A DNA stretch of 64,000 nucleotides from contig CAWGMQ010000008.1 in the NCBI GenBank assembly GCA_963823665.1, positions 1,152,001-1,216,000 of the forward strand. Reading direction: 5' to 3'. Position 1 is the stretch's first letter, and each line of letters begins with the position of its first letter. This stretch comes from an uncultured Planctomycetota bacterium. Its GTDB lineage: Bacteria > Planctomycetota > Planctomycetia > Isosphaerales > Isosphaeraceae. Positions 16,585-36,764 of the stretch are shown here, piece after piece. The position numbers and the translations under genes were made by a program. Below the pieces are notes generated by a model, which made no database searches, was not told where the DNA came from, and saw only the letters and a program-made list of their open reading frames with translations.

Positions 16585-16603
16585 CTTTGCTGAACCTCAG
16601 GGT

Positions 16604-17556: not shown

Positions 17557-18138
17557 GTGAATCCGACTTCGCTTAGCTTGCTCGATCGACTCAAGGTCGC
17601 ACGTCCGGACGCGTCCGACTGGAATCGGTTGCACGCTATCTATCTGCCACTGATACAGAGATGGCTCGGTCGTGTTCCTGGCCTGGGAGACGAGTCGGCT
17701 GATGTGGCCCAAGAGGTTCTTGTAGTCGTTTTCCGTGAAATCCCGCGGTTCGACAGGCAGCGTGAGGGGTCGTTCCGAGCTTGGCTTCGGCAAGTGACGG
17801 TGAACAAGATTCGAAACTACTGCAGAAAGCGTCACCGCCGACCCACCGTGGGGCTCGACCCCGCCGATGGATTTCTCGAGCGATTGTCCGACCCGAACGA
17901 CGATCTTGCTCGCGAGTGGGATCGAGATCACGATAAGCACGTCGTTCAAAGGATATTGGCCGTCGTGCAGCCGGACTTTGCTCCGGCCACGTGGCAGGCG
18001 TTCCAACGTTTCGGCATCGATGGTGTGCCGGCCGGACGTGTCGCCGAAGAATTGGGCATTTCCGAGAACGCGGTCATTCTCGCGAAATCGCGCGTTCTCA
18101 AACGGTTGAGGGAGGAAGCCGGCGACCTGTTGTGGTAG
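17557..18138 (+). CDS. ECF RNA polymerase sigma factor
   Basis: TSLSLLDRL, DVAQEV, GSFRAWL, VAEELGISENAVILAKSRVLKRLRE. Confidence 0.92.
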   Translation: MNPTSLSLLDRLKVARPDASDWNRLHAIYLPLIQRWLGRVPGLGDESADVAQEVLVVVFREIPRFDRQREGSFRAWLRQVTVNKIRNYCRKRHRRPTVGLDPADGFLERLSDPNDDLAREWDRDHDKHVVQRILAVVQPDFAPATWQAFQRFGIDGVPAGRVAEELGISENAVILAKSRVLKRLREEAGDLLW

Positions 18139-18223
18139 CTTTCAGTTTTCGGGACAGGTTCGGGGCGGAGCCAGCCTTTCATTATCAGGAATCATCATTC
18201 GACAGGTCTCCGGAGACCGCCAG

Positions 18224-20881
18224 ATGGACGCCCATCAAGACGAGCATCCGACTGACCAGATTCTGAGCTCATTTGGCTTGGGCAAGCTTGACGCCGCTTT
18301 CGCGGAGGCAGTCAGCAAGCACCTGGAGCAGTGCCCAGACTGTCGCAAGCGGGTTGCTGAGATGTCGGCGGACAGCTTCCTGGAAAACGTCCGGCGCGTC
18401 CAGAATCCTGCCGATGGTTCGACTGTCGGCTATTCGCTCCTCGGCCGCACGCCGAGCGCCGGAGGCGAGATCGTCTCGGTGCCGCCTCCGTCTGGCACGC
18501 TCCCACCGGGCCTGGCTAACCACCCCGATTATGAGATCAAGCGGGAACTGGGCCGAGGTGGGATGGGTGTGGTCTATCTGGCCCACAACAAACTGATGGG
18601 CCGCGACGAGGTGCTGAAGGTGATGAGCCGGCATCTCGTGGAGCGGCCCGGGGTGCTAGAGCGCTTCCTGCGCGAGATTCGAGTCGTTGCCCGGCTTCGA
18701 CACCCGAACATCGTGACGGCGTACCACGCCACTCGACTGGGGGAGAGTATCGTCTTCGCGATGGAGTATGTCGAGGGTCTCGACCTGTCCAAGATGGTCA
18801 AGGCCAAGGGTGCTATGCCGGTTGCTTACGGGTGCAACTTCGTCTATCAGGCGGCACTGGGACTCCAGCACGCTCATGAGGAAGGGCTCGTCCACCGCGA
18901 CGTCAAGCCGGGCAACTTGATGCTCACTTGGAGGGGGGACAAGGTGGTTGTCAAGGTCCTCGATTTTGGTCTGGCGAAGGCGAGCCGCGAGGAGCACGTC
19001 GACGGCGCACTGACCTCCACGGGGCAAGCGTTGGGCACGCCCGACTATATTGCGCCTGAGCAAATCCGCGACGCCATGAGTGCTGACATCCGCTCCGACA
19101 TTTACAGTCTTGGTGGAACGCTCTATTACCTTTTATCCGGCCGCCCGCCATTCCGGGCGAATTCGCTTTACGACATCTATCGGGCGCACATCTCCCAGGA
19201 CGCCGACCCGTTGAATTTCGTGCGTCCGGAGGTGCCGGCGGAGCTAGCAGCCCTTGTGGCCAAGATGATGGCGAAGGAACCGGGCCGACGGTTCCAGACC
19301 CCTGGAGAAGTCGCACAAGCGCTCACGCCGTTTTTCAAGAAGGGAACTGTGGCGTTCAAGGTTCCCAAAATGGACGTGTCCCAGGACAGTCACTCCACGG
19401 ATATTGAGCCGGAGCTCGAGGCGGTCACGGAGCCGATTCCGTCGATGGCGGTCGCTGGAAGCCCGGCTCCAGGAGCAGAGAGCGCGGTCCAACGAACTGT
19501 TCCGGAGTCCCAGTGGGAGAATTTGATCGAGGTTCGGGATGCCGAAAGCGCCGTCGACTCGACGGTCCCAAGCTCGCCAAGGGGGTGGCCGCCGTCCGTC
19601 TCTTTGCCGGCATCGATCACGGCTGCCCTTTTGGGCCTGATCGTGGTTGGGGTCAATGTCATTGCGTACAGAGCTCCGGACGCCGCGCCAAGAGTCGCGG
19701 TCGTTGGGCCCAATCTGGCGGGCGACGGGACCTCGCGCGAACGCGCCGATGCGATACCCGCGCCACCGCCGGGTGCCACGCCGGGCGTGCCGTCGGAGGC
19801 GAGGCCCAAGCCTTCGACCGAGGGCGGGGGCGGTGAGACTACAGCCGAGTCCAGTCGTTCGGGCGGCGCCAACTCGTCGGATCGCGCCGGCGAGACGACC
19901 GCGAGGCCACCGGAAGCCGAGTCGAGAGTGGCGTCGCGTCCGAAGCCCGCGCCTCCGGTCGACGCGAAGGGAAGCAACAGTGCCGAATATCACGATCCGC
20001 TGGCCAAAGGGAATGCGGCCGACAATGCCAATGTAACGCCGAGCCCGCCGCCGAAAGCCAAACCGAAGATCGTTTCGTACGCAAATCTCAAGCGATCAGT
20101 CATCAACACAATCGAAATGCAGTTCGTTCTGATTCCTGACGGAGAGTTTACGATGGGCTCGGAACGTGGGCAAGGTGACGCGGACGAACACCCTCCGCAC
20201 AAGGTCCGGATCACTCGGCCGTTCTACCTTGGGGTTCATGAGTTGACCCAGCGCCAATACGACGCCGTGATGGGGCGCAATCCCAGCTATTTTTCACGGA
20301 ACGGTAAGGGCAAGCAACACATCGCGGTTGGGCAGTCAACCGAGGAGCAGCCCGTTGAGTGGGTATCCTGGCTCGACGCCGTGGCATTCTGCAATGAGCT
20401 CAGTAAGAAGGAGCATCGGAAGGAGTTCTATGACGTCGTGGGTGCGACAGTAACGATTCCATCCTGGGACGCCGATGGTTATCGGCTGCCCACGGAGGCC
20501 GAATGGGAGTACGCGGCAGGTCGGGATCCGGGGAATGTTAGTGAATACGCCTGGCATCGCGCCCCTAAAGAGAACCCCTGGAGTGTCACCCAAATAGTGG
20601 GCCGGAAGCCGCCGAACGGACTCGGCCTCCATGACATGTTGGGTAACGTACGGGAGTGGTGCTGGGACGCTTACGACGCCAGCTATTACAAGAACAAGCA
20701 ATATCCAATGGAGGACCCGCACGGCCCGGATGTTGACTTGGCCGAGCTTCGTGTCGTCCGCGGCGGGGGCTGCGATAGCGAACCGCGCTACTGCCGGTCG
20801 GCGAAGCGCACTGGTATCGTGCCGGATCGCCCGCGGCGGGACGTGGGCTTGCGGGTGGCCTGCGGCCCGTCGTGGCGCTAG
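18224..20881 (+). CDS. Kinase K1: zf-HC2 anti-sigma finger + Ser/Thr kinase + TM + FGE-sulfatase (C-type lectin fold) domain
   Basis: HLEQCPDC; GRGGMG, HRDVKPGN, DFG, APE; FTMGS, YRLPTEAEWEYAA, LHDMLGNVREW, RGG. Confidence 0.93.
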   Translation: MDAHQDEHPTDQILSSFGLGKLDAAFAEAVSKHLEQCPDCRKRVAEMSADSFLENVRRVQNPADGSTVGYSLLGRTPSAGGEIVSVPPPSGTLPPGLANHPDYEIKRELGRGGMGVVYLAHNKLMGRDEVLKVMSRHLVERPGVLERFLREIRVVARLRHPNIVTAYHATRLGESIVFAMEYVEGLDLSKMVKAKGAMPVAYGCNFVYQAALGLQHAHEEGLVHRDVKPGNLMLTWRGDKVVVKVLDFGLAKASREEHVDGALTSTGQALGTPDYIAPEQIRDAMSADIRSDIYSLGGTLYYLLSGRPPFRANSLYDIYRAHISQDADPLNFVRPEVPAELAALVAKMMAKEPGRRFQTPGEVAQALTPFFKKGTVAFKVPKMDVSQDSHSTDIEPELEAVTEPIPSMAVAGSPAPGAESAVQRTVPESQWENLIEVRDAESAVDSTVPSSPRGWPPSVSLPASITAALLGLIVVGVNVIAYRAPDAAPRVAVVGPNLAGDGTSRERADAIPAPPPGATPGVPSEARPKPSTEGGGGETTAESSRSGGANSSDRAGETTARPPEAESRVASRPKPAPPVDAKGSNSAEYHDPLAKGNAADNANVTPSPPPKAKPKIVSYANLKRSVINTIEMQFVLIPDGEFTMGSERGQGDADEHPPHKVRITRPFYLGVHELTQRQYDAVMGRNPSYFSRNGKGKQHIAVGQSTEEQPVEWVSWLDAVAFCNELSKKEHRKEFYDVVGATVTIPSWDADGYRLPTEAEWEYAAGRDPGNVSEYAWHRAPKENPWSVTQIVGRKPPNGLGLHDMLGNVREWCWDAYDASYYKNKQYPMEDPHGPDVDLAELRVVRGGGCDSEPRYCRSAKRTGIVPDRPRRDVGLRVACGPSWR

Positions 20882-21020
20882 GCCCGGGGTGCACCGAGGG
20901 GCTGAGTGGTTTCCTGGTCAACGGTTGTTGACACGCTCGCGCAGCGGGTGAGGCGCGCCGGTTTTTGTTGCGTTGAATCGGGAGGGAGGCGAGACGGCGA
21001 GCGAGCTGACGTATTCCTAA

Positions 21021-21170
21021 CTTGAACGATTCGGCGGACTAACGAATCTGTTTGAGTTCGAGCTCAGGAAAGGCCCTACGATCACCGACGCCGGCGCCGC
21101 AGATTTGCGATTTCTGCCACGGCGCCGGTCACTATGGCTGCACAGTACCGCCGTTGGCGACTCGGGGGAT
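21021..21170 (+). pseudogene. Leucine-rich repeat shard
   Basis: LTNLFEFELRKGPTITDAGAADLRFLPRRRSLWLHSTAVGDSG resembles ITDAGL..L..L..L..L.L..T.V.D.G; no start codon. Confidence 0.5.
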
Positions 21171-21214
21171 TTTGCCGCTTCCGGTGGGGACCGCAGCCTT
21201 TGGAGATCTAATGC

Positions 21215-22099
21215 GTGGAGTTTAACCGCTTCGACGTTTCGGCCAAGGAATTGATCTGGGACGACCCTGCCGCGTGGCTGGATCGGCTGGGGATCGGACC
21301 GCCAGGACCGGTCGCGGTCGTCGACTCGGATATCACTACCCTGACAGCCGCTGCCGACAAGGTGATACACGTCGGTGGAGCGCAGCCGTACCTGGTCAAT
21401 TTCGAGGTCCAATCGAGTCATCAAACGGACTTGGTTGAGACCACCTGGTTTCGCCACGCGGCGCTCTTCCACCGCCACCGATTGCCGGTGCTGACCGTCA
21501 TGTTCCTGTTACGGCGCGACGCAAATTCGCCGAGCCTCACGGGACGCTTCGAAATTCGTCTACCAGACGGCTGGATTACCAATCAGTATAATTACCGCGT
21601 GGTCCGAATCTGGCAGGAAGACTCGGAGTCCTACTTGGCCGCCGGGGTGAACTTGGTGCCGCTCGTCCCGCTGACCGACGTCCCGGAAAACGGTCTTCCG
21701 GGCGTGGTGCGGCGGATGGCCGATCGGATCAATGCTGAGCCTGAGCCGCGCGCAGCGATGCTCTGGACCGCGACGTATCTGCTCATGGGATTACGCTTCT
21801 CGAACGATTTTGCGTCTCAGTTGCTGGAAGGAGTGCAAAATATGCAGGAATCGACCACCTACCAAGCCATCCTGAAAGAAGGCCGCAAAGAGGGCCGTGA
21901 CGAAGGCCTCATCGAGGGCCGCGTGAGCGAAGCTCAGCGCCTGCTGCTGATGCTGGGTGAGGCTCGTTTTGGGGAACCGGACGGAGCAGCCAGGGGAACG
22001 ATCGAGGCGACACAGGATTTGGAACGGCTGGAGCGGTTGACCAGGCGGGTAATCGATGCGAGCGTGCAGGACTGGAACGGCCTGCTGGGCGCGTCTTGA
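21215..22099 (+). CDS. Rpn/YhgA-like PD-(D/E)XK nuclease, copy 2
   Basis: Close paralog of 15724-16584 with extra EG repeats (EGRKEGRDEGLIEGR). Confidence 0.75.
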   Translation: MEFNRFDVSAKELIWDDPAAWLDRLGIGPPGPVAVVDSDITTLTAAADKVIHVGGAQPYLVNFEVQSSHQTDLVETTWFRHAALFHRHRLPVLTVMFLLRRDANSPSLTGRFEIRLPDGWITNQYNYRVVRIWQEDSESYLAAGVNLVPLVPLTDVPENGLPGVVRRMADRINAEPEPRAAMLWTATYLLMGLRFSNDFASQLLEGVQNMQESTTYQAILKEGRKEGRDEGLIEGRVSEAQRLLLMLGEARFGEPDGAARGTIEATQDLERLERLTRRVIDASVQDWNGLLGAS

Positions 22100-22121
22100 T
22101 CTCGCTGGATTTCGGGCCGGA

Positions 22122-22207
22122 AAATGGTTACGGGAGGAGACTGGCGAACTTTTTTGGTAAATTCCGTTTTTTCGCAACAGGTTCGATGGGGAACCGGCCT
22201 TTCATCA
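22122..22207 (+). repeat. Copy of ECF sigma 3' end plus intergenic element
   Basis: KWLREETGELFW* then ACAGGTTCGATGGGGAACCGGCCTTTCAT. Confidence 0.85.
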
Positions 22208-22246
22208 TCTGAAACAATCAGTTGCCCGGTCCGCGGAGACCGCCCG

Positions 22247-25200
22247 ATGGACGCTCATCCAGCCTCGCATCCGACCGATCAGACGCTGAGCTCATACGGC
22301 TTGGGCAAGCTCGACAACGCCTCGGCTGTGGCGATTAACGAGCATCTGGAGCAGTGCGCGGATTGTCGGCAACGGGTCTCCGCGATTTCGGCTGATAGCT
22401 TCTTGGAACGGGTGAGGGACGGTCGGAAGCCTTCGGGGAATACGACGTTCGGCGAGTCGCTACCTGGCGGGGCGCGAGGCCACAAGGTCGAAATCGCCCC
22501 GGCTCCGCCGCCGGCGAGCACACTTCCGCCCGGGCTGGCCGACCACTCCGATTACGAGATCAGGCGGGAACTTGGCCGGGGCGGGATGGGTGTGGTCTAT
22601 CTGGCACACAACAAGCTGATGGGGCGTGACGAGGTGCTCAAGGTGATGGGGCGGCAGATCATGGAGCGGCCCGAGGTGCTGGACCGCTTCCGCCGCGAGA
22701 TTCGTGCCGTCGCCAAGCTCCGCCACCCGAACATCGTCACGGCGTACCACGCGTTTCGGCTGGATGAGAGTATCGTCTTCGCGATGGAATTTGTCGACGG
22801 TCTCGACCTGTCGCGGATGGTCAAGGCGAAAGGTGCGCTGCTGGTTGCTCATGCGTGCAACTTCGTCTATCAGGCGGCGCTGGGGCTCCAGCATGCCCAT
22901 GAGGAAGGACTTGTGCACCGGGACATCAAGCCGGGTAACCTGATGTACTCGAGCAAGGGCAGCAAGGCGACGATCAAGATCCTGGACTTCGGACTCGCGA
23001 AGGCGACCCGCGAGCAGAAGGTTGACAGCGCGTTGACCTCGGAAGGACAGGCCTTGGGCACGCCCGACTTCATCGCTCCTGAGCAGATTCTCGACGCCCA
23101 GAGTGCCGACATCCGGGCTGACATTTATAGTCTGGGCGGCACGCTGTTTTACCTTTTGACCGGCCGGCCGCCGTTCCAGGCGAATTCGCTCTACGACATG
23201 TACCAGGCCCACATCTCCAGGGACGCCGACCCGCTGAATCTCGTGCGGCCGGAGGTGCCGGCCGAGCTGGCGGCGCTTGTGGCTAAGATGATGGCGAAGG
23301 AGCCAGGTAAGCGGTTTCAGACACCGCGCAAAGTTGCGGAGGCGCTCACGCCTTCTTTTAAGAGGGAAAGCACGGCGTCGAAAGGCGGTAGGATGAAGGT
23401 GCTGGACGCCGTTCAGGCGGAGCCGGGTCAGCGGAGCGGCAGAGCGGGCCCCGCGCCGACTCAGTCGGGGCAAGATAGCGCACTCCTGCTGCCCCAGGCA
23501 ACGGATGCGGCCGACCCTCACGTCCCGACGCCGCCGTCGGAAGGCGTGATCGAGCTCCGGGATAGGGAGACTTCGACGTCATCTGTGCCGCGATTGATGT
23601 ATGCATCAAGCTTACGGGGTCGGCCTCGTTGGGTCTGGCTGGCGGTCGCGGCGACGCTGATCTCTGCCCTGTTCGGTGCCTGGTGGGCCGCCGACGCTCT
23701 GGGTGCGAAAAAACCGCACGGCATCATCGAGCTTCGCAACCTTCCGAAGGACGCCGAAGTCTCTGTCGACGGCGAGCCGATCCCAGTTCACCGGCCAGGC
23801 GGTGCGGGAATTGCGGAGATCCCAGCCAGGGTGGGCAAGCGGAAAGTTACATTCAAGAAGGGCGGTTTCGAGACCACTGGCGACGAAGTGGTCGTCAGCA
23901 AGGCCGGCGAGCGAATTCGACTCGACGTTCGGCTTATCCCCGTCAGGTCTACTTCGCGCACGGCCCAACAGCAGCCGGTTGAAGCTCCGACGATCACGAA
24001 GTCGGGACCTGGCACGCGCGGAACGACACCGTTGCCGGTAGTAACGCTCGTGCTTGGTGACTGGACGGTTGTCGGAGACGAGCTCATACAGTCAGACGAT
24101 CGCAATCACGCCGAAATCGCATTCGGTAACAACGCGTGGTCAGAGTACGATTTGACGTTGGACGTCAACAAAGTCAAAGGCAGCGGCCACGGAATCGGAG
24201 TTCAGTTCTATCGGTTGAACTCCGCCACGTTCTGTTGGTTCGGCCTTGGTGTATTCCAAAACAAGGGCTGTGAGCTGTATTTCCAACTCAATGGAAGAAA
24301 CATGGGAAGGAAGGGGGACACTAACGAAGACAATTGGAGTTCCCAGGGAATCGACGTGAATCGGTGGTACTCAGTCAAAATTGAGGTCCGGAAGGAGGCG
24401 GTGAAGGCTTATCTGAATGACTGCTTGCTCTTTAAGGAGTCTCACTCAGCGTTCTCTCGCGGGCGCGTGGGCTTACGCACAATGAACGTCCAGGCCAAGT
24501 TTCGTCGAATCAAGGTGACCGATCCCGATGGCAGGTTACTCTTCGAAAGTTATCCGACCTTTGGGACCGCGCCGGGCTTCATTGGACTGTCCACGGACGC
24601 TCGTGAAACGGTCGAGCTCAGGGATGAGGATCCCGGGGATGATCTCAGCGATCTCAACGAACGGGCTTGGTCGCTGGCTACGGATGCGGATCGGTCGCAA
24701 CGTGACGGAGGCGAGGCCGTCGAGCTTGCGACCCGCGCGTGCCGTGGGAGCGCGTTCGAGCACGCGATGTACCTGGACACGCTCGCTGCCGCGTACGCCG
24801 AGGTTGGAAACTTCGAGGAAGCCGTGAGGTGGCAGAAACAAGCGATCGAACGGGAGGGCCAGGGCCGGTACAGCAAAGAATATCGAGAGAGGCTTGGGCT
24901 TTACACTCGGAAGATACCCTATCACCAGGGCGAGACTGTTCCAGCGGAAGACGAACCTGTCGCTGCTGCTGAGGCCCTCCAGACGAAGGTTGACGAAAAC
25001 GGCGCGAACGCGAATGGCGGTTCTGCCACAGCTCGCGACCAGTCCTTGCGAGGGGCTAAGGAGGAGGCAGGTAGGAATATGCCGAGGGGCGAACGGCGCG
25101 AAGAGGGCTTCGTGAGGCTGTTTAACGGCAAGAACCAGGATGGCTGGACGAATGCGCTGCCTGGCAACGGTTCTACCTGGGGGGTAACTGATGATGGCAT

Positions 25201-25711
25201 CTTGGAAGGACGCGGCGAACCCGGACCCGGTAACACGGCGATTTTGGTCTCTGACCGAAAGAGCCTCACGAACTTTGTGCTGCGGGTGAGAGTGCGTTTC
25301 CTCGGAGAAGGAGGTGGCCATATTGTGGTTCGCCAGAGTGGCGCTGAAGATCCGAAACGCGGTTACCACGTTCAAGCTTTCGGATCGGGCAATTATCCCA
25401 TTTGCCGAATCGGTCGGTACATCGACGGCCCATCGGCTGACATGGGCGCCAAACCGCAGCCGGTCGCCTTCCAGGATGATCAGTGGAAGACAATCGAGAT
25501 CATCGCGATTGAGAACGAGATCGCCGCGTCGGTGCTCGGAACGGGATGGCGTGACTCGAATGTCGACTTGGACGCAATGTACAGATCAGGAAGCATCGCC
25601 GTAACCTGTTGGGGGCATATCCAGATCAAGGAAATACTGCTCAGGGAGCTTCCGGACGGCTCAGTTTCAAAGACGCCATCCAGGCGAAAAACTGTGAAGA
25701 CGAGGAATTAG
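22247..25711 (+). CDS. Kinase K2: zf-HC2 + Ser/Thr kinase + TM + PEGA-like + DUF1080-like + TPR + DUF1080-like
   Basis: HLEQCADC; full kinase motifs; YLDTLAAAYAEVGNFEEAVRWQ TPR; GFVRLFNGKNQDGW. Confidence 0.92.
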   Translation: MDAHPASHPTDQTLSSYGLGKLDNASAVAINEHLEQCADCRQRVSAISADSFLERVRDGRKPSGNTTFGESLPGGARGHKVEIAPAPPPASTLPPGLADHSDYEIRRELGRGGMGVVYLAHNKLMGRDEVLKVMGRQIMERPEVLDRFRREIRAVAKLRHPNIVTAYHAFRLDESIVFAMEFVDGLDLSRMVKAKGALLVAHACNFVYQAALGLQHAHEEGLVHRDIKPGNLMYSSKGSKATIKILDFGLAKATREQKVDSALTSEGQALGTPDFIAPEQILDAQSADIRADIYSLGGTLFYLLTGRPPFQANSLYDMYQAHISRDADPLNLVRPEVPAELAALVAKMMAKEPGKRFQTPRKVAEALTPSFKRESTASKGGRMKVLDAVQAEPGQRSGRAGPAPTQSGQDSALLLPQATDAADPHVPTPPSEGVIELRDRETSTSSVPRLMYASSLRGRPRWVWLAVAATLISALFGAWWAADALGAKKPHGIIELRNLPKDAEVSVDGEPIPVHRPGGAGIAEIPARVGKRKVTFKKGGFETTGDEVVVSKAGERIRLDVRLIPVRSTSRTAQQQPVEAPTITKSGPGTRGTTPLPVVTLVLGDWTVVGDELIQSDDRNHAEIAFGNNAWSEYDLTLDVNKVKGSGHGIGVQFYRLNSATFCWFGLGVFQNKGCELYFQLNGRNMGRKGDTNEDNWSSQGIDVNRWYSVKIEVRKEAVKAYLNDCLLFKESHSAFSRGRVGLRTMNVQAKFRRIKVTDPDGRLLFESYPTFGTAPGFIGLSTDARETVELRDEDPGDDLSDLNERAWSLATDADRSQRDGGEAVELATRACRGSAFEHAMYLDTLAAAYAEVGNFEEAVRWQKQAIEREGQGRYSKEYRERLGLYTRKIPYHQGETVPAEDEPVAAAEALQTKVDENGANANGGSATARDQSLRGAKEEAGRNMPRGERREEGFVRLFNGKNQDGWTNALPGNGSTWGVTDDGILEGRGEPGPGNTAILVSDRKSLTNFVLRVRVRFLGEGGGHIVVRQSGAEDPKRGYHVQAFGSGNYPICRIGRYIDGPSADMGAKPQPVAFQDDQWKTIEIIAIENEIAASVLGTGWRDSNVDLDAMYRSGSIAVTCWGHIQIKEILLRELPDGSVSKTPSRRKTVKTRN

Positions 25712-25785
25712 CGTGCTCCGAGAATTGCCGCGAATCCAAAGAACGCGGCTCCGATCGAACTCCCATCATGCGGGAAGCAGAGCCC

Positions 25786-26748
25786 ATGACTCAGCCACCG
25801 AGGTCGATTCATCCGAAGCCTGCTGTCGAAGGTTCCGCGGCTTCGAGCGAGCCAGATATGAACGTGACCGGAGGGCATCCGACAATGCAACAACCGGTGG
25901 ATCGTGCGGGCACCGTTCTGGAGACTGACGAGGACGTTAGGCAGGCGCTCTTGTCTATTCACAAGGGCGGACAAAGAGCCCGGCCGACCGCCCCTGAAGT
26001 GCAAGCAACAACCCCGGCGGCATTCAGCCAGAGCGTGGGGCGCGCGGCTGTCGCGTTCCGGCCGACTATCCGGCCACCCGTGGCTCTGCTGACTGTGTGC
26101 GACGACGGCAAGACCACCGGCGAGGTCATCCGCATCCGCGAGCATCGGTTCATCATCGGCCGAACCGACGGGGATCTTCGCATCCCGATCGACGGCCGGA
26201 TCTCGAGCCGGCACGTCGAGATCACTCACCAGGTCGTGGGCGGCATGCACCGTTGGGTCGTTACTGACCTGCAAAGCACTCACGGTTTGTTCGTCCGCGT
26301 CAGCAAGACGGCGCTGGTTGACCAGGCCGAGTTCCTGGTCGGCGGAGGGCGGTATCGGTTTGATGCCATGCAGATTGATCCCGCTGCAACCACCGGGTTT
26401 GGTCCGGCCGGTTCTGCATCCGACGAGACTGGTGGCTGGAGCGAAGGCGCGAGTCCCATTCGCCCGCCTGCCTTGACCGAGTTGCTCGGCTCGGAGATCG
26501 GCAATCGCGTGCTTCTGGTCAAACCTGAATACTGGATTGGCTCTGATTCCGGGTGCACGATTTGCCGGCCGGATGACCCGTTCTGCGAACCGCAGCACGT
26601 CAAAGTCTACCGGAAGTCAAAGGGCGCATGGCACGCGGAGCACAACAAAACCACTAACGGTCTTTGGCTGCGAATGGCCCAAGTCACCGTCGAGGCGAGA
26701 GTCCAGTTTCAGATCGGGGAACAGCGGTTCGAGCTCAAGCTGAATTGA
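25786..26748 (+). CDS. FHA-domain protein (one canonical and one degenerate FHA)
   Basis: IIGR...ISSRH...DLQSTHG; second WIGS...PQH...TTNG; start uncertain. Confidence 0.85.
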   Translation: MTQPPRSIHPKPAVEGSAASSEPDMNVTGGHPTMQQPVDRAGTVLETDEDVRQALLSIHKGGQRARPTAPEVQATTPAAFSQSVGRAAVAFRPTIRPPVALLTVCDDGKTTGEVIRIREHRFIIGRTDGDLRIPIDGRISSRHVEITHQVVGGMHRWVVTDLQSTHGLFVRVSKTALVDQAEFLVGGGRYRFDAMQIDPAATTGFGPAGSASDETGGWSEGASPIRPPALTELLGSEIGNRVLLVKPEYWIGSDSGCTICRPDDPFCEPQHVKVYRKSKGAWHAEHNKTTNGLWLRMAQVTVEARVQFQIGEQRFELKLN

Positions 26749-26793
26749 TGGCCCATTCTCGCGAGTCAGGACGTCTTTGAAGGAACTGTCGTT

Positions 26794-27780
26794 ATGGTAC
26801 GAGCATTCTTGCCAGCCGCGCTTGTCATCTCCGTCCTGGCGACCGGCGCGCGGGCGCAGTACACGTGGATCGGCCCTGGCTCGACGCCGCAGGGCGATTA
26901 CCTGAGAGGCGTCGGAATCGCGGCTTATGGCTTGGGTGTTTACAACGAACGAACGGCCGTCGCCGATCAGATCAACGCGAATACGCTGATTATGTTGAAC
27001 GAATATATGTGGAACGTCGCCAAGAACGAGAACCTCGAGAACGCCGCGCACCGGGCCGCTGTTCGGGCCAAGCACGCCGAAGACTACAAGAAGATCCAGG
27101 ATCGAATTCAAAACGACCCCGAATCGATAGACGTGCTGGACGGCAGTGCCCTGAATACCAAGCTGTGGGAGCTACTGGATCCGAAGGTTTCTGAATCCAC
27201 GTCGCGTCATGCGAACGTGCCGCTCGACGCAGACATCATCCGTCGCGTGCCGTTCAAACTCGCTGAGAAAGGCGAGACATTTTCCATGAGGCGGCTCTCG
27301 CTCAAGGGCAAGAAGAAATGGGCCGTGGCGTTTCAGGACCCTGGTTTCGCCAGCCTCTGCCGGGCGTACGAGCTGGCCGTTGACAATGCTCTGGAGTTGG
27401 CGATTGAAGGGAAGATGAAGGAGAGCGCCATCGCGGACGTCGAGAAGGCCGTCGAGAACCTTGAGGATAAGCTGCGGGCGACACCCCAACTGTTCGAATT
27501 GAGACGCCAGAGCGAGGCCAGCGAGGCCAGGGCACAGCTCGATCGTCTCCGCAAAACGGCGCGGCTCTTCATGTCGCTGCCGATCCAGCGGGTGTTCGGA
27601 GAAGTCGATAGCTACCATGGCACGACCGTCGATGATTTCAGGCTCTTCATGCGACGGCACAACTTGACGTTCGCTCGCGCGGATTCGCCTGACGAGAGAA
27701 TCCTCTATTTTCAACTCTACACCGCCCTACTCGAGCAACGTAACAAGGTTACGGGCTCGGAGAAGGCACCGATGAAATGA
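26794..27780 (+). CDS. Secreted helical hypothetical protein
   Basis: Signal peptide ending ARA-Q; GSTPQGDYLRG segment. Confidence 0.75.
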   Translation: MVRAFLPAALVISVLATGARAQYTWIGPGSTPQGDYLRGVGIAAYGLGVYNERTAVADQINANTLIMLNEYMWNVAKNENLENAAHRAAVRAKHAEDYKKIQDRIQNDPESIDVLDGSALNTKLWELLDPKVSESTSRHANVPLDADIIRRVPFKLAEKGETFSMRRLSLKGKKKWAVAFQDPGFASLCRAYELAVDNALELAIEGKMKESAIADVEKAVENLEDKLRATPQLFELRRQSEASEARAQLDRLRKTARLFMSLPIQRVFGEVDSYHGTTVDDFRLFMRRHNLTFARADSPDERILYFQLYTALLEQRNKVTGSEKAPMK

Positions 27781-27801
27781 CCCGGGGAGGGTTCTCTCGC
27801 C

Positions 27802-28956
27802 ATGGTCCGGTACAGCGTTATTGGATCTGTGTTTTGTATGTTCCTCGCCGGTTCCGTGTGGCTCGTTCAAGACAAAGGGCGAACATACCGTGAATCCCTG
27901 GACAGGGCGAGGCGCTCGCCGACCGCGGCAGAGGCTGCACCGCCTGCTCAGAATTCGGAAGTCGAGGTCGCCGAGGCTGTGAATGCGGCCAAGGGGCCCG
28001 CGCAGCCTCTGCCGGAAGGTCCGCCGGCGAAGAACATTGTCGTCACGAAGGCACCCTCGGCCGCTGAGCGAGAGGAGCGAAAAACCACTCCCTCGGAGAA
28101 GCCCGCGGCTACCGCGTCTCCGTCACCGGCAATCCCGCCTGGGCGTGCGGTCAAGACGTCGACGCCCGCACCCTCTGACGGCAAAGCTCTCGCCGCCGGC
28201 ATCTCGCGATGGAAGAGCGATCCGCTGTGGGGCCAGCCCTACTTGACCAAGTCGTGGAAACTGGATGATTTCACAACTCAGGACGAGAAGCAGCTTGGCG
28301 AACAGTTCAACAGTTTGATCTTGCAGTTGAATCCACTAGACGCAGGATCGGGGTTGAGACGCGTCAAGGAGGCGGCAGCTTCGCTCGAGCCATTCTTGCG
28401 GAAGGATATCAAGTATCAGTTCTTCGTCCTGAATTCCGATGTGGTCAATGCCTTTTCCCATCCGGGCGGATACATCTACGTGACCCGGAAACTTCTGGAC
28501 ATGATCCCCGATGAGGAAGAGCGCGTGCTCGAGTTTGTGGTTGGCCACGAGATTGCTCATGTCGAGCTTCGACATGCTCTGGCGTGTCTCCGAGATCGGG
28601 ACGTCCGGAGCTTCAGTGAAGGTACGTTGCAGAAGCTTTACTTCTTGATCATCCCGTATGGCTACCCGGATGACCTCGAATATGCTGCTGATGCGTGGAT
28701 CTATCAGCGGATGAAACATCTCGATCGGTCTGAGCACGACTGCCTGAAGTTTCTGCGTACACTCGACCAATACGCGAGAGCGAAGGGTTTTGAGAACGGG
28801 CGCGGGAAGCCGCAGGACCTGATGAAGGAGGAGCGCGGCGAGCTGGAGGGCATTCGCGGGATTTCACCCATCGACGATCACGTGCGCTCGCATCCGGCTG
28901 CTTATGACCGCCTGAGCCATTTGAAGGCGCTCAGGGGGCAGGCTTTGGGGAAATGA
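27802..28956 (+). CDS. M48-family zinc metallopeptidase, membrane anchored
   Basis: VNAFSHPGGYIYV, HEIAH, EYAAD, SHP; N-terminal hydrophobic segment and Pro/Ala linker. Confidence 0.9.
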   Translation: MVRYSVIGSVFCMFLAGSVWLVQDKGRTYRESLDRARRSPTAAEAAPPAQNSEVEVAEAVNAAKGPAQPLPEGPPAKNIVVTKAPSAAEREERKTTPSEKPAATASPSPAIPPGRAVKTSTPAPSDGKALAAGISRWKSDPLWGQPYLTKSWKLDDFTTQDEKQLGEQFNSLILQLNPLDAGSGLRRVKEAAASLEPFLRKDIKYQFFVLNSDVVNAFSHPGGYIYVTRKLLDMIPDEEERVLEFVVGHEIAHVELRHALACLRDRDVRSFSEGTLQKLYFLIIPYGYPDDLEYAADAWIYQRMKHLDRSEHDCLKFLRTLDQYARAKGFENGRGKPQDLMKEERGELEGIRGISPIDDHVRSHPAAYDRLSHLKALRGQALGK

Positions 28957-30316
28957 AAACGGCCAGCGAGGTGAGGCTGATCAGCATGGCTGCAAGAGCC
29001 AGCGCGTCAGCCTCTGGGCCCATCCGCTCGGTCTTGGCCGGGAAGAAGCGCTCGGCCATGTCGACCACCGGTGTTGATCGAGTACTGGCCGCCAGTGGTG
29101 GCTGCGAGGTGGCGTGTGTGTCAGTTTCCAGCAACAACAGGCCCTCGAAAGCCCAGCGCGAAGGAATGACGCAAGTCGCCATCCTGGCCGCCGCGTTCAA
29201 ACGCGGCAGCGGCCAGATACAGCCACCGCCGGCGATCATCAGCGAGACGGCGAGCGCCAGCGCCGCTGCTGCCCACTTCGGCCTGCGGACCATTCTCGAC
29301 GCGAACAGCCCGAGCGAGAGTCCCACTGCCGAAGCCAGGACCGACATACCGAACATCGCCAGCCAAGGTCCGCGCAGGTCGCATCCCCAGTGGACAATCG
29401 CCAGCAACACGGCGCACTGAGCGATGCACAGGGCGATCACGATCGAGAGCGTGGAGGTAAGGGAAGCGAGCGCACTTGAACTCGTCGCACCTTTGCGGGG
29501 AACAACCAATCGGCCGGACGCGACGCTCCATGCGGCAAGGGAAGCGCCCAACCAGATCGCTGCCAGACCCAGTGCAAAGGTCGTGCCCGCGATCCATTGA
29601 GCGACGGAGTCCAGACTCTTGGCGTTGGGCTCCATCGCGGGCGGGCGGCCAGCAATCGCAACGATCAAGACGGCGATCGTCGCCGACTGTGCGAGCAGGG
29701 CGGGCGCCCAGCGGTCGAGCAGGTTTGGTGGAACCTGGAATTTCGCAGTGACTGGCTCCGTCCGCGACTCGATTCTTGGGCTCGGTTGTGCGGGCGAAAA
29801 AACATGATCGGGCGCGACCTCCGCGGTCATTAGTTGAGCCGCCGTCACCGTGAGCGATCCGAAGGAGACGACGTCCCCTTCGGTCAAGGGAATCGGCTGC
29901 TTCGCCTTGTGATCGGGTGTGTTGACGAATGTTCCATTGGACGATCCCAGATCCTCGATCAGCGTTTGAGTACGGGAGATGATGATCCGAGCGTGGTGGC
30001 TGGAAACCCTCGGATCGTCGATGACAATGTCGTTGTCGGTGCTGCGGCCAATTCGGATGACCCTCGCGGCAGCCGGGGTTTCGGCGGCCGGCCAGGGCAT
30101 GCGGACGGTGGCGCCCAACGTTACGACATCCTGTGGCGTGACGCGAGTCTTCGACTTGATCCGTTCTCCATTGACATACGTGCCGTTCGACGCGCCCAAG
30201 TCTTCGACGACGTAGCCGCCAGCGATCTCGGAGAGGCGGCAGTGGCGGCTTGAGACTGTGGGCTGCGCGACGACGAGGTCGCAATCGGCGTCGGTCCCAA
30301 TGATCCAGGTCCGCAT
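28931..30316 (-). CDS. FHA-FHA-ABC-2-type membrane domain protein lacking an ATPase domain
   Basis: Two FHA domains (VSSRH...SNGTYVNG; IGR...VSSHH...SSNGTFVN) followed by TM region with IWLG and SRWAFEGLLLLE; no Walker A. Confidence 0.8.
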   Translation of the reverse strand: MRTWIIGTDADCDLVVAQPTVSSRHCRLSEIAGGYVVEDLGASNGTYVNGERIKSKTRVTPQDVVTLGATVRMPWPAAETPAAARVIRIGRSTDNDIVIDDPRVSSHHARIIISRTQTLIEDLGSSNGTFVNTPDHKAKQPIPLTEGDVVSFGSLTVTAAQLMTAEVAPDHVFSPAQPSPRIESRTEPVTAKFQVPPNLLDRWAPALLAQSATIAVLIVAIAGRPPAMEPNAKSLDSVAQWIAGTTFALGLAAIWLGASLAAWSVASGRLVVPRKGATSSSALASLTSTLSIVIALCIAQCAVLLAIVHWGCDLRGPWLAMFGMSVLASAVGLSLGLFASRMVRRPKWAAAALALAVSLMIAGGGCIWPLPRLNAAARMATCVIPSRWAFEGLLLLETDTHATSQPPLAASTRSTPVVDMAERFFPAKTERMGPEADALALAAMLISLTSLAVFISPKPAP

Positions 30317-30419
30317 GGCTCGTACCTTGAGCAAGCACTACAGGCACCGTCGTCAGCATTGTCATGGCGCCAGCGCCCCATTATCGTGATGGTTGTCGTT
30401 GGTGCAAACTGTTAGAGGC

Positions 30420-30529
30420 GCGATTCTGAGGAAATGTTGGGTTCTAAATCGGTTCAGCGAGGAAGGCGGGGCCTTTTTTTGTTAGATTCCTTTTTTCGCG
30501 ACAGGTTCGAAGCGGAACCGGCCTCTCAT
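30420..30529 (+). repeat. Copy of ECF sigma 3' end plus intergenic element
   Basis: AILRKCWVLNRFSEEGGAFFC* aligns to VILAKSRVLKRLREEAGDLLW*; then ACAGGTTCGAAGCGGAACCGGCCTCTCAT. Confidence 0.8.
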
Positions 30530-30570
30530 GTTCAGTTCCAATTATTCGACCGGTCCCCGGAGACCGCCCG

Positions 30571-33500
30571 ATGGACGCTCATCCAACCTTGCATCCGACC
30601 GATCAGACGCTGAGCTCGTACGGACTCGGTAAGCTCGATGACCGGTCGGCAGACGTAGTGAACAAACATTTGGAGCAGTGCCCGGATTGTCGGAAACGGG
30701 TTTCCGAAATGTCGGCTGATAGTTTCCTAGAACGGGTCCGGGATGGACAGGAGCCTTCGGGCGATACGACGTTCGGCCAGTCGCTGCTTGGTGGGGCGCA
30801 GAGCGACAAGGGCGAGAGCCCTCAGGCCCCGCCTCCGGCAAGCACCCTTCCACCCGGCCTGGCTGAACATCCCGATTACGAGATCAAGCGAGAGCTCGGC
30901 CGTGGCGGGATGGGCGTGGTCTATCTGGCCCACAACAAAATGATGGGGCGCGACGAGGTGCTGAAGGTGATGAGCCGACAGATCATGGAGCGCCCCGGAG
31001 TGCTCGAACGATTTCTCCGCGAGATCCGGGTCGTGGCCAGGCTTCGGCACCCCAACATCGTGACGGCGTACCACGCCACGCGACTGCGCGAAAGTTTCGT
31101 GTTTGCGATGGAGTATGTCGAGGGTCTCGACCTGTCGAAAATGGTCAAGGCCAAGGGCGCAATGCCCGTCGCTCACGCGTGCAATTTCGTTTATCAGGCG
31201 GCGCTCGGGCTCCAGCACGCGCATGATGAAGGACTCGTCCACCGCGACATCAAGCCAGGCAACCTGATGCTCTCTCGAAAGGGAGGCAAGGCGATTGTCA
31301 AGGTCCTCGATTTCGGTCTGGCGAAGGCGACTCGCGAGGAGAAGGTCGACGACGCGTTGACCTCCGAAGGTCAGGCTCTAGGCACGCCCGACTATATTGC
31401 GCCCGAGCAAATCCTCGACGCGATGAGTGCTGATATCCGCGCCGACATCTACAGTCTCGGTGGCACGCTCTATTACCTTTTGGCCGGCCGCCCGCCGTTC
31501 CAGGCGAATTCGCTGTACGACATGTACCAGGCTCACATTTCGCGTGATGCCGACCTGCTGAACTTCGTACGCGCGGAGGTACCGTCAGAACTGGCGGCGC
31601 TCGTCGCTAAGATGATGGCGAAGGAGCCGGTGCGGCGGTTTCAGACCCCAGCGGACGTCGCTCGAGCACTTGCTCCATTCTTCAAGAGGGACGCGTTGCT
31701 TCCGGCGCCTCAGACGTTTGAGAAATCCCGCTCGATGCCCGAAGTCGAACCGAAGCTGGATTCTCGCCCGGGCGCCACGCCGGGGCATTCCGCTGCTCGG
31801 GCTGCGGTCTCACGCCCGCGAGAAGACGCGGCACCGAAGCAGCGCGACGGCAACGTGGCGTGGGAAAGGTTGATTCAGATCGCGGACGATGAACCGCTCA
31901 TCGAGCTGGAAATACCCAAGCCGGCGAAGTCAGCAGCCAGGAATGTACCGAGCAGGAGGCAGCCGGGCGAGGAATGGCGCGTGGCACTTGCGGCCGCCGC
32001 ATTCGCCGTGGCGGCGCTCGGCGTGATCGTCATCACGATCACGACAAGAAACGGACAGACGAAGATCACAGCAAAGGACGACGTGCCATTCAAGATTGAA
32101 ACGCCAGATGTAAGCGTGGAGCACACGCCGGAGCACACCGCCACATCGTCGCGCGCTTCGACCACCCCAAAGGAGTCAAATGGCATGATCCCTCGCAGTG
32201 GCGAGCCGGCGCGAAACGCTTGGGTCAATCTTTTCAACGGAAAGGACCTCGATGGCTGGGAGAAGAGGCCCGAATATGGGGGAGGCGAATGGAACGTGAC
32301 CGACGGTGTCCTGGAGGGCGGAGGATCGGCCGAAGGCCATGCAACCCTTGTGACGAAGCGGCGTGACTTTAGGGATTTCCGGCTGCGAGTTACATTGATG
32401 TATAAAGAACCTTTAGGGACAGGGCACATCCAATTGCGACGGTCCGAAGCGGCTGGAAAGTGGTATGGATACCTGGTCACGGACGGCGGTTGGTGGAACG
32501 TAAGGCAGGACGGGCAGCGACAGATCGCCGACCAGGGTTGGTTCCCCGCTATTGGAAGTGTCGCCAAGCACGGCGGGCGCGGCGTCTACGGGCCCTGGGC
32601 TCTGCTCTCCAAGCCAGTACCCTACACGTCCCCGCACTGGAACGTTATCGAGGTTACGACTCTGACAAATCGGATATCTACAACGGTTAATGCAATCACG
32701 GTCTCAGAATATGTGGACGACGACGAACCCCACGCCTCGGGCAGTATCGCACTGGTTTGCAATGGAACCTGGAACGTCCGAATTCGGTCGGTGGAAATCC
32801 AGGAAATTAGGCCTCTCGCGTCCGGTGGCAGCGATGCCGCGCCCATCGGTACGGTAAATGGTTCCGTCGGAACAGAGATGGGCAGCCCACAGGTGCCACG
32901 CGCCGACCATGACCGCCGAGTAGTCGCAGTACCGAAGCCGGAATTTGGTCGTGACCCTGTTCAAAGGAAACCGTCCTACGCGTCAGAGCCGGAAGGACCC
33001 ATGGGTGAGAAGGTAAGGAGTCACGGCAAGGCGAGCGCTTTGGATGGGAGCACCGACACCCGAGAAAAGCGTCCTCAGCCCGCCAATCCAGATATCGAGC
33101 GCAGGCTCGAGCAACTGAGAAGACAGGCTGTCGCTCGCATGCTGCACCATATTGAGGTGTTCAGCGAGGCGTATACAGATATAAGCGGGCGCGCCTGGGC
33201 TTATCAAAACTGCTTCCGGGATTTTCAGCCAAGACTCCAAGGGCTGGTCGCGACCATGGAAGCGGGCACAATTCCGGTTGATGAGATGCAAAGCCTAAGC
33301 GTTGAGATGAAGAACCGTAACATATATCTTCTCATGATGTCTGGTTTCGAATCACCCCAGGCCGAGGGGAGAGCCCCTATGGCATGGAAAGACTACGGAC
33401 CGGCGGTTAGAGATCTAGAATGGACGATTTCACAGTTTGGGCAACTGAACCAACAGAACACCCAAGGTGTTGATCCATTTCGAGCCGGTTCAGTGTGGAC

Positions 33501-33789
33501 AAGCGAAGGCGGACAACGCCCACGAACGGTGCTCCTGGTTCTGGAGCGGTCCGGCGAGCGATTCAAAGGCAGGTTTGTGACTTCCGATGAGCCGTTGCGA
33601 TTCTTGGAAATCACCGGGACCATCCGCGACCGGCGGGTCTCATGGCTAGGAAAAGATGTGGTTGCAAAAGTGCCGGTGCAGGCTCCAGACCAGTCCGGGT
33701 TAATGAATGGCGAAGTGATAAACATGGAGTGGTCCGGCAACGGCTTACCTGATTCCGGCCGGTATGTGTTGCGACTCTGGAAGGATTAG
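30571..33789 (+). CDS. Kinase K3: zf-HC2 + Ser/Thr kinase + TM + DUF1080-like + unknown C-terminal domains
   Basis: HLEQCPDC; full kinase motifs; WVNLFNGKDLDGW. Confidence 0.92.
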   Translation: MDAHPTLHPTDQTLSSYGLGKLDDRSADVVNKHLEQCPDCRKRVSEMSADSFLERVRDGQEPSGDTTFGQSLLGGAQSDKGESPQAPPPASTLPPGLAEHPDYEIKRELGRGGMGVVYLAHNKMMGRDEVLKVMSRQIMERPGVLERFLREIRVVARLRHPNIVTAYHATRLRESFVFAMEYVEGLDLSKMVKAKGAMPVAHACNFVYQAALGLQHAHDEGLVHRDIKPGNLMLSRKGGKAIVKVLDFGLAKATREEKVDDALTSEGQALGTPDYIAPEQILDAMSADIRADIYSLGGTLYYLLAGRPPFQANSLYDMYQAHISRDADLLNFVRAEVPSELAALVAKMMAKEPVRRFQTPADVARALAPFFKRDALLPAPQTFEKSRSMPEVEPKLDSRPGATPGHSAARAAVSRPREDAAPKQRDGNVAWERLIQIADDEPLIELEIPKPAKSAARNVPSRRQPGEEWRVALAAAAFAVAALGVIVITITTRNGQTKITAKDDVPFKIETPDVSVEHTPEHTATSSRASTTPKESNGMIPRSGEPARNAWVNLFNGKDLDGWEKRPEYGGGEWNVTDGVLEGGGSAEGHATLVTKRRDFRDFRLRVTLMYKEPLGTGHIQLRRSEAAGKWYGYLVTDGGWWNVRQDGQRQIADQGWFPAIGSVAKHGGRGVYGPWALLSKPVPYTSPHWNVIEVTTLTNRISTTVNAITVSEYVDDDEPHASGSIALVCNGTWNVRIRSVEIQEIRPLASGGSDAAPIGTVNGSVGTEMGSPQVPRADHDRRVVAVPKPEFGRDPVQRKPSYASEPEGPMGEKVRSHGKASALDGSTDTREKRPQPANPDIERRLEQLRRQAVARMLHHIEVFSEAYTDISGRAWAYQNCFRDFQPRLQGLVATMEAGTIPVDEMQSLSVEMKNRNIYLLMMSGFESPQAEGRAPMAWKDYGPAVRDLEWTISQFGQLNQQNTQGVDPFRAGSVWTSEGGQRPRTVLLVLERSGERFKGRFVTSDEPLRFLEITGTIRDRRVSWLGKDVVAKVPVQAPDQSGLMNGEVINMEWSGNGLPDSGRYVLRLWKD

Positions 33790-36730: not shown

Positions 36731-36764
36731 CGAAGCACCTCCCCCACGGAGCGGGGCGGAATAC

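Follow-up and report, generated by a model that had tools for sequence, protein, structure and literature searches.

We analyzed a 64,000-nucleotide stretch of the genome of an uncultured planctomycete of the family Isosphaeraceae (assembly GCA_963823665.1, contig CAWGMQ010000008.1, positions 1,152,001 to 1,216,000; hereafter, the window, in which coordinates are given unless another contig is named), where a gene for a sigma factor of the extracytoplasmic function (ECF) type is followed by three genes, K1, K2 and K3, for membrane protein kinases with an N-terminal zinc finger. All four open reading frames (ORFs) were found at their coordinates on the forward strand, and the positions assigned to them in an earlier note on this DNA (17557, 18224, 22247 and 30571) are correct to the base. 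The sigma factor (17557..18138, 193 aa) contains a Sigma70_r2 domain (E 1.6e-13) and scores above the cut-off of TIGR02937. K1 (18224..20881, 885 aa), which starts 85 nt after the sigma stop codon, consists of an HHCC finger (residues 8-40), a Hanks-type kinase domain (103-358), a hydrophobic helix (about 463-481) and an outer domain, or tip, with an FGE-sulfatase/CLec fold (633-879). K2 (22247..25711, 1154 aa from the conserved ATG) combines finger, kinase and helix (about 463-481) with PEGA-like, DUF1080-like, TPR-like and again DUF1080-like domains, and K3 (30571..33789, 1072 aa) carries, beyond its finger, kinase and helix (about 472-490), a degenerate DUF1080-like domain (551-743) and a C-terminal domain of no assigned family. 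The locus had been described as a three-kinase array; the three kinase genes indeed lie behind one sigma gene but are not contiguous, accessory genes being interleaved. One gene of the Rpn nuclease family separates K1 from K2, and genes for an FHA protein, a protein of no known family, an M48 metallopeptidase and, on the opposite strand, an FHA-ABC protein separate K2 from K3. Contigs from public short-read runs match parts of all three kinase genes with 0-1 differences; one of them (31577-31788, 0 differences) spans the kinase-linker junction of K3, and none of the short-read pieces listed spans that of K1 or K2.

A shared finger-kinase block

The first 373 residues of K1, K2 and K3 can be aligned gap-free; this block ends with ALTPFFK, ALTPSFK and ALAPFFK, respectively, codon 373 closing exactly at 19342, 23365 and 31689, where the earlier note had placed the AL.P.FK end of a shared segment of about 370 aa. 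Over this block, K2 and K3 are 75% and 81% identical to K1. The genome yields at least 133 kinase matches, of which the 10 paralogues closest to the K1 block are 66-100% identical to it and the next one only 46%, a drop that marks the K1-K3 type as a distinct subfamily. Pfam recognizes zf-HC2 and Pkinase in all three proteins, the finger at or near the cut-off of 22.2 (21.8, 22.5 and 25.4), and all retain the GRGGMG, VLKV, HRDxKPGN, DFG and APE motifs of an intact Ser/Thr kinase. Identity among the three genes is 88-94% at codon positions 1 and 2 and 58-65% at position 3, which marks them as old, intact duplicates under purifying selection. At the DNA level, they are alike from 100-150 nt before the ATG onward, a stretch in which the sigma gene 3' end is present as a decayed copy.

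A single hydrophobic helix follows the kinase domain at a distance of 89-98 aa in each protein. The proteins had been thought to diverge past the shared block; this holds for the tips beyond the one transmembrane helix but not for the linkers past residue 373, which are still weakly homologous, similar in length and endowed with a WExLI-type motif. Conserved in cytoplasmic linkers that vary otherwise (19 of 34, as counted with a loose pattern), such a motif stands some 55-65 aa past the kinase domain and is a possible docking site.

Mosaic exchange of fingers, kinases and tails

In a tree of 44 kinase domains, restricted to those recovered as one long match and leaving out kinases split by frameshifts, tip types are scattered rather than grouped into clades, and sister branches often differ in their tips. 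Tails were compared for 42 of the 44 proteins, a contig-end case and the outgroup being dropped, and the crossover comparison dropped two with long inserts; for frameshifted genes, 900 nt of tail were compared. Among the 16 pairs, not independent of one another, with kinase DNA identity of at least 89%, the tails are 97% identical in one, collinear at 79-80% identity in one, share short pieces in eight and have nothing in common in six. The tips are thus exchangeable, as the earlier note proposed, and do not co-evolve with the kinases: a tail is kept in only 1 of the 16 pairs of near-identical kinases. Comparison of a second array in the window's genome with its counterpart in a genome of the same genus (G001) is consistent with this picture, three of four kinase-containing blocks stopping no more than about 25 nt from where the kinase ends and the fourth about 340 nt into the linker. 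A terminal tip retained between the two is 89.6% identical, which argues that tips do not simply evolve faster.

The companion idea of a constant output half has to be abandoned, given that fingers and kinase domains are themselves swapped. Two genes of genome G033 share 636 identical nt of kinase and have fingers that are 67-70% alike; conversely, in G030, 156 identical nt of finger accompany kinases that are about 80% alike, and one G030 gene has the finger of one neighbor and the kinase of another. The breaks in both genomes fall at alignment positions 270-308, where the kinase begins (0 of 300 permutations in each). K3 is likewise a mosaic, resembling K2 before the break (53 of 75 informative sites) and K1 after it (82 of 134; 0 of 300 permutations), and the test gives weaker results for K2 (6/300) and K1 (13/300). 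There is almost no coupling between finger identity and kinase identity (rho 0.13). With breaks at its start and its end, the kinase domain acts as a homology hub, and new specificities likely arise by ordinary homologous crossover within this conserved domain. Lineage-specific duplication and recombination of planctomycete kinases have been published (PMC11032199; this statement, like those marked "in part" below, draws on part of the source).

The zinc finger and its predicted sigma target

Class I zinc-binding anti-sigma (ZAS) domains follow the pattern (C/H)-x23-26-H-x3-C-x2-C. The four ligands of the finger, H8, H33, C37 and C40, align with those of ChrR; among 78 fingers, H33, C37 and C40 are invariant and H8 is present in at least 90%. 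A profile built from these fingers finds anti-sigma domains as its top matches (ChrR, 4e-7; RslA, 3.5e-6; DdvA, 3.4e-5; RsiW, 0.007), so that profile and ligand alignment agree with the earlier assignment of HxxxCxxC to the ZAS motif.

A complex model of the window's sigma factor with the finger of K3, the kinase encoded farthest from it, scored 0.75, against 0.19 for the best of three controls, with at least 92% of the contacts shared between runs and a partner confidence score (pLDDT) of at least 82. The mark used was reached by 116 of 157 solved pairs and 2 of 215 mismatched pairs, counts that are only roughly valid for these alignments, and the K3 model may have passed it through likeness to solved ZAS-ECF complexes. 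In the model, finger residues 17-22 and 52-61 contact sigma residues 126-134, 152-160 and 170-192; the finger sits on the C-terminal helix of region 4, the only region with confident contacts, and the core contact residues are identical or conservatively replaced among K1-K3. The K3 finger is therefore predicted to bind sigma region 4, a position in which it would block promoter recognition. The identity of the fingers rises with that of the sigma factors (rho 0.43 among 19 adjacent kinases and 0.32 among 27 non-adjacent ones), whereas kinase identity does not (0.02 and 0.07), and the K2 and K3 fingers are closest to fingers encoded beside the sigma factors most similar to this one.

On the sigma side, region 2.2 reads E46-S-A-D49. 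Across 60 relatives, D49 is invariant, EADD (16/60) and ESAD (11/60) are the commonest forms of the motif, and it contains no conserved Ser/Thr; the sigma thus does not fit the phospho-activated ECF43 type, in which uncharged residues with a conserved Thr/Ser take the place of DAED. The N-terminal T4-S5-x-S7 is near-invariant, Ser or Thr occupying these positions in 100%, 95% and 100% of the 60 sequences. T4, S5 and S7, or S178 at the predicted interface, are candidate phosphorylation sites.

Outer domains

Pfam identifies an FGE-sulfatase domain in K1, two PF06439 (DUF1080) stretches and a weak TPR in K2, and one PF06439 domain in K3. These are the tips named in the earlier note, which missed the PEGA-like domain that follows the helix of K2 (Pfam E 0.024, below the cut-off; a paralogue scores 1.9e-6). 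The K1 tip is nearest to TvpA, a binding protein of the CLec fold and target of a diversity-generating retroelement (2y3c, E 2.4e-32), far ahead of catalytic FGE (3e-15). Against the two-cysteine active-site segment of FGE (YLCHDSYC), K1 aligns only the second cysteine, followed by a 3-residue gap; another cysteine stands two places earlier, so the loss of catalytic activity in the K1 tip is something we infer. The FGE-sulfatase domain has been described as a lectin-fold domain (PMC8195603, in part). The DUF1080 domain of K3 lacks the NSG and LQVH motifs that are kept by a neighboring stand-alone protein, and motifs of this type are common to that neighbor and a solved putative hydrolase. The tips would be non-catalytic binding domains, probably for glycans. 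The neighbor (13967-15382) is an exported protein with two DUF1080 domains, both motifs being intact.

Tips in other members of the family include PEGA, WD40, LRR, TPR, VHL and C-type lectin domains; WD40 is found in none of K1-K3 and in paralogues such as that on contig C10 of the genome. The single helix, together with published work on planctomycete kinases (PMC11032199, in part), places the tips in the periplasm. Two candidate sources of tip diversity were rejected. For a diversity-generating retroelement (DGR) origin of the K1 tip, no template-like copy was found in the genome, the best other match to 20640-20900 being 70% identical over 103 nt in a check that covered the K1 3' end only, with no search aimed at reverse transcriptases. 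Apparent orphan tip cassettes at the locus on contig C5, three FGE modules in long overlapping frames, are likely one frameshifted gene.

A promoter-like motif and a repeated sigma tail

A bipartite motif, consisting of a T-tract, CAGGT, 15 free bases and CCTTTC, lies 70-90 nt before the kinase start codon in K1 (18146..18180), K2 (22169-22203), K3 (30493-30527) and most relatives; by a strict pattern, it is present in 36 of 75 kinase upstream regions. Before K2 and K3, and also at 16600, the motif adjoins a decayed copy of the last codons of the sigma gene. The remnant ahead of K2 (22122..22203 with its motif) has a local score of 111 against a shuffled maximum of 33, that ahead of K3 (30423..30527) scores 140 against 25, and the third (16600..16692, motif 16653-16687) is an orphan followed by ybaK, with no kinase. 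The presence of a sigma-tail remnant beside the motif indicates that the repeated unit began inside the sigma 3' end. The motif also occurs independently of the tail, two of three copies in Tundrisphaera sp. TA3 being tail-free.

The window contains four copies of the motif, against 0.09 expected, and the 16.5 Mb genome contains nine matches within one mismatch, all at finger-kinase loci (control, 1). The spacer is 15 nt in 76 sites, and any other length from 10 to 21 occurs at most four times. Of 107 matrix matches, 43 follow an intact sigma gene and 70 precede a finger; others stand before FHA and exported-protein genes. Eleven of the 36 family genomes carry the motif, 10 of them among the 11 that encode the kinase clade (control, 0), and elsewhere in the phylum it was found once each in 2 of 300 genomes (control, 1). 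This geometry fits an ECF promoter, and the motif is likely one.

Toxin-antitoxin genes often precede the repeated unit: Rpn, HicAB, an addiction-module antitoxin (G033) and MqsA-like helix-turn-helix (HTH) genes. At one G033 locus (L043:5894-7130), a HicB/HicA pair and an addiction-module antitoxin gene lie in antisense orientation between sigma-tail/motif repeats, between the sigma gene and the first kinase. Nine of the 15 Rpn profile matches in the window's genome fall within its two arrays, and GTTA stands upstream of 20 of 64 non-sigma copies of the repeat, against a 2% background.

Arrays in related genomes

At a threshold of E 1e-100 or better, the kinase clade was detected in 12 of 61 genomes, all within the family of the window's genome, G000 (11 of 36 family genomes when G000 itself is excluded). 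The arrangement of many kinases behind one sigma, postulated from the window, recurs in several genera: G030 has ten kinases after one sigma gene, G001 five, the second array of G000 four, and G033, G021 and G003 three each. Such arrays are usually terminated by FHA, unknown, M48 and FHA-ABC genes. A sigma-based scan gave 76 loci with titles mostly of Isosphaeraceae or Planctomycetota, 50 of which have a full sigma gene of at least 58% identity and at least 9.5 kb downstream; within 10 kb after the sigma gene, these 50 loci, which are not independent, have no finger-kinase (9), one (21), two (13) or three (7), a count that is a lower bound, so that 20 of 50 have at least two. The complete genome of a cultured strain, Tundrisphaera sp. 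TA3, encodes the sigma factor, two finger-kinases, with tips of three DUF1080 domains plus a C-type lectin and of DUF1080, respectively, and the accessory genes.

Further loci in G000 show the same components in other states. The second array (G000:C8:2085900-2115500, minus strand) comprises an Rpn gene, a sigma gene (71%), a gene for a 304-aa unknown protein and four finger-kinases, two of which are frameshifted, along with a complete FHA-FHA-ABC gene, three double-FHA genes, both copies and fragments of Rpn, and two HTH genes. At G000:C11:123061-132341, two finger-kinases whose kinase domains belong to different clades stand behind a sigma gene with an internal stop, and at G000:C5:506059-516143 a sigma fragment is fused to a finger fragment beside an intact pair. 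Three orphan genes (G000:C4:473985, C4:493786 and C4:1199410) combine this type of finger with a kinase domain of another clade (33-35%) and have a sigma-tail remnant with a variant motif (CAAGT, 15 nt, CGTCTT) upstream.

Accessory and neighboring genes

Directly after K2 comes a double-FHA protein (25783..26748; FHA x2, E 6e-14, Pfam), FHA domains being readers of phosphothreonine. It is followed by a 328-aa protein with a signal-peptide-like N-terminus (26794..27780) that falls into planctomycete hypothetical clusters, has no match in Pfam, NCBIfam or PADLOC, and has its three closest copies in the genome all at kinase loci. An M48 metallopeptidase with a HEIAH motif and an N-terminal hydrophobic anchor (27802..28956, Pfam) is convergent with the minus-strand gene for an FHA-FHA-ABC2 membrane protein without an ATPase domain (28931..30334, Pfam). 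A double-FHA gene lies within 10 kb after the sigma gene in 19 of the 50 loci, and an opposite-strand FHA-FHA-ABC-type gene terminates most of the mapped arrays. The module of unknown, M48 and FHA/ABC genes is not confined to finger-kinases: in G022, G035 and G028, it follows other kinases, 34-35% identical and without a finger match. PADLOC returned no match for the accessory genes and tips.

The two Rpn-family genes (15724..16584, with an ORF-caller start at 15682 and atlas neighbors named Rpn/DUF4351; and 21215..22099, with its stop codon 22 nt upstream of the sigma-tail remnant before K2) are 86% identical in DNA. In an alignment of 15 sequences, D48 and E64-x-Q are followed by an invariant internal M210 and by variable 4-aa repeats of the KEGR type. 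A nuclease motif, an internal start and variable four-residue repeats are hallmarks of Rpn toxin-antitoxin genes (PMC10400941, in part), a type that the window's genes fit by their sequence. Runs of Rpn genes and C-terminal Rpn fragments occur inside arrays L068, L070, L101 and L105, in the manner of the RpnS genes reported to stand alone in E. coli. Enrichment of Rpn genes at multi-kinase loci is not significant (10/20 against 5/21 single-kinase loci, p 0.11).

Elsewhere in the window, two Cas6 fragments (33858-34487 and 35410-35675), 87% duplicated, lie on either side of an Uma2-family gene (34573-35526, minus strand), with no further cas gene among the scanned window ORFs. At 35877-37991, a region without a Pfam match, stretches of 240-690 nt are repeated directly but imperfectly (82-85% identity), and at 43233-48110 (minus strand) a kinase ORF and a WD40 ORF come after a second, unrelated ECF sigma gene. 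An unrelated kinase-TPR gene (6603-9863), a SEC-C protein gene (11186-12001) and ybaK (16793-17281) are probably passengers.

Interpretation and alternative explanations

The reading that we favor, with about as much doubt as confidence, is that of a multi-input receptor-kinase/anti-sigma system with swapped outer domains, in which the fingers hold the sigma factor and any activated receptor frees it. The finger of each receptor would park the sigma factor at the membrane via region 4; once the outer domain of any one receptor has bound a ligand, its kinase would likely become active and would then modify and free the shared sigma factor, probably by phosphorylation. Phosphorylation would be needed for release because a sigma factor that was simply dropped would be recaptured by the fingers of unliganded receptors. 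The freed sigma factor would transcribe the kinases and the accessory genes (FHA, secreted-protein, M48 and FHA-ABC) from the likely promoter, and the placement of this promoter before the kinases would provide negative feedback. As an alternative route of release, the M48 peptidase could cut the receptors, much as proteolysis frees DdvS (PMC11506125, in part). A bolder version, which we hold to be rather unlikely, makes the locus a counterpart of plant receptor-kinase clusters: an expanding, recombining array of lectin-like receptors, guarded against deletion by toxin-antitoxin genes between the repeats, in which crossovers within the kinase domain would reshuffle fingers and sensors and each receptor, being anti-sigma and kinase at once, would contribute to an OR gate for foreign glycans or surfaces via sigma phosphorylation.

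Several observations weigh against the shared-sigma reading. Convergence of all three kinases on this one sigma, as the earlier note had it, is supported in part: the K3 finger is predicted to bind it, but exclusivity is doubtful, the genome encoding other close sigma factors (intact ones at 62% and 71%, one with a stop codon at 82% and one fragment, with paralogues at C8:2113990, C5:510243 and C11:123061 among them) and 14 strong finger matches, orphan finger-kinases included. For 13 second-or-later kinases, finger and kinase correlate equally with the sigma (0.20 and 0.22), the correlation for adjacent genes could result from linkage alone, and single arrays in G030 and G033 mix finger types, so that a given finger may serve more than a single sigma. 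Of the 50 loci, 21 have a single kinase and 9 have none downstream; paralogues elsewhere are often frameshifted, assembly error and decay being indistinguishable; and recent conversion among K1-K3 is not seen, the longest identical runs being 24-32 nt. The motif, too, has its difficulties: it precedes none of 56 sigma genes, where an autoregulatory promoter would lie, its few copies elsewhere in the genome imply a very small regulon, and its co-occurrence with the kinases is partly circular, the pattern having been derived from these loci.

In a first alternative, the finger would be a docking tether rather than an inhibitor, and the sigma factor, inactive by itself, would become active once phosphorylated, in the way that PknT acts on EcfP. 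Direct phosphorylation is the presumed mode of control in kinase-linked ECF groups, which typically lack anti-sigma genes (PMC7826278, in part), and the near-invariant T4, S5 and S7 would offer acceptors; we nonetheless find this explanation unlikely, since the EcfP-type switch requires the loss of acidic residues in region 2.2 (PMC8999054, in part), where D49 is invariant in the present sigmas, and since a finger seated on the C-terminal helix of region 4 would block promoter recognition. A shade less likely still is a birth-and-death process among duplicates, in which this sigma is served by K1 alone, K2 and K3 are old copies devoted to other sigma paralogues or other substrates, and the tails reflect generic planctomycete shuffling. 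The abundance of kinase matches and broken paralogues, the close sigma paralogues, the published duplication and recombination of planctomycete kinases (PMC11032199, in part) and the location of K3 beyond the opposite-strand gene that ends most arrays are all compatible with such a process; yet K2 and K3 are intact, are under purifying selection, keep the motif and the predicted contact residues, and have fingers nearest those beside the closest sigmas, and arrays recur in several genera.

The flanking of cargo such as the antisense HicB/HicA and antitoxin genes of G033 by copies of the sigma 3' end, the Rpn genes that twice in the window end just before the repeat and cluster in the two arrays of the genome, and the upstream GTTA would also suit a site-specific integration site, the locus then being an integron-like cassette array that gathers kinases and toxin-antitoxin genes. 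This we regard as quite improbable: the motif also occurs without the tail, the fixed 15-nt free spacer fits a promoter, GTTA can also be explained by descent from codons of the sigma gene, the Rpn enrichment is not significant, and no integrase was found in the 39 window ORFs scanned with Pfam, a part of the ORFs, no genome-wide integrase search having been made.

Relation to known systems

The pairing itself has a name, and the suggestion that this is an undescribed system is to that extent withdrawn. ECF62 denotes a planctomycete ECF sigma with a single-pass kinase, usually encoded at +1 (1.27 kinases per context), that has one helix, an N-terminal zinc finger in subgroups s1-s3 and WD40 tips in s1 and s2; a promoter upstream of the sigma gene is not conserved (Casas-Pastor et al. 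2021, PMC7826278). The locus shares the planctomycete host (the closest sigma relatives are titled Isosphaeraceae or Planctomycetota), the +1 kinase, the single helix, the zinc finger and the absence of a conserved promoter ahead of the sigma gene, and ECF62 membership fits all testable features, as judged by the described features rather than by the group hidden Markov model or clade; ECF59s2, with one-helix kinases, some with TPR, may be an alternative. The locus and its relatives differ from ECF62 as described in having 2-10 kinases per sigma, mosaic genes, a spectrum of FGE, DUF1080, PEGA, TPR, LRR, VHL and C-lectin tips, a motif downstream of the sigma gene and before the kinases, and a linked FHA-unknown-M48-FHA/ABC module; the ECF62 finger, moreover, has no stated role.

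The ZAS anti-sigmas ChrR, RslA, RsiW and DdvA have the same HHCC/CHCC finger, a single-pass membrane protein with a large outer domain, and binding to region 4, and DdvA of the Myxococcus xanthus DdvA-DdvS pair binds region 4 more tightly and is released by proteolysis (PMC11506125, in part). In the parts of the sources consulted, none of them carries a kinase between finger and membrane, and each sigma has one anti-sigma, unlike K1-K3. EcfP/PknT and EcfK/PknS (ECF43) also pair an ECF sigma with a membrane Hanks kinase, with phosphorylation as the proposed switch (PMC8999054 and PMC8103513, both in part), but ECF43 sigmas lack the acidic region-2.2 motif and an anti-sigma, whereas E46 and D49 are kept in this sigma and a ZAS finger is part of its kinases. 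PknF-Rv1747 of Mycobacterium tuberculosis resembles the arrays in joining a kinase to an ABC transporter with two FHA domains, no ECF link being described in the part of the source used (PMC3138270); complete FHA-FHA-ABC genes lie inside several arrays, whereas the window copy, encoded on the opposite strand, has no ATPase domain, unlike Rv1747. By analogy, polymorphic toxin systems, plant receptor-kinase clusters and DGR CLec proteins likewise combine a conserved core with a variable tip; they differ from the present arrays, in which no orphan tip cassettes with immunity genes and no template copy of the K1 3' end were seen and which consist of whole genes, each with its own motif.

In the literature searched, we found no account of the arrays, of exchange between mosaic genes, of the motif or of the finger as an anti-sigma, on which supplements to earlier surveys may bear. 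The sigma-kinase pair is thus known as ECF62, and what we did not find in the searched papers are the many-kinase arrays, the mosaic genes, the motif and the predicted finger-sigma binding. If the reading is correct, the motif is a candidate for the promoter targeted by a planctomycete ECF group with linked kinases, for which a promoter had been reported as not conserved; it is located downstream of the sigma gene rather than upstream, and crossover in the kinase domain would be the way in which giant planctomycete genomes make new receptors. The two-kinase version in Tundrisphaera sp. TA3 makes binding, phosphorylation and promoter use directly testable. ECF signaling normally pairs one sigma with one regulator; the system proposed here would be a many-to-one ECF design that unites anti-sigma and kinase in a single receptor and would explain the unassigned finger of ECF62.

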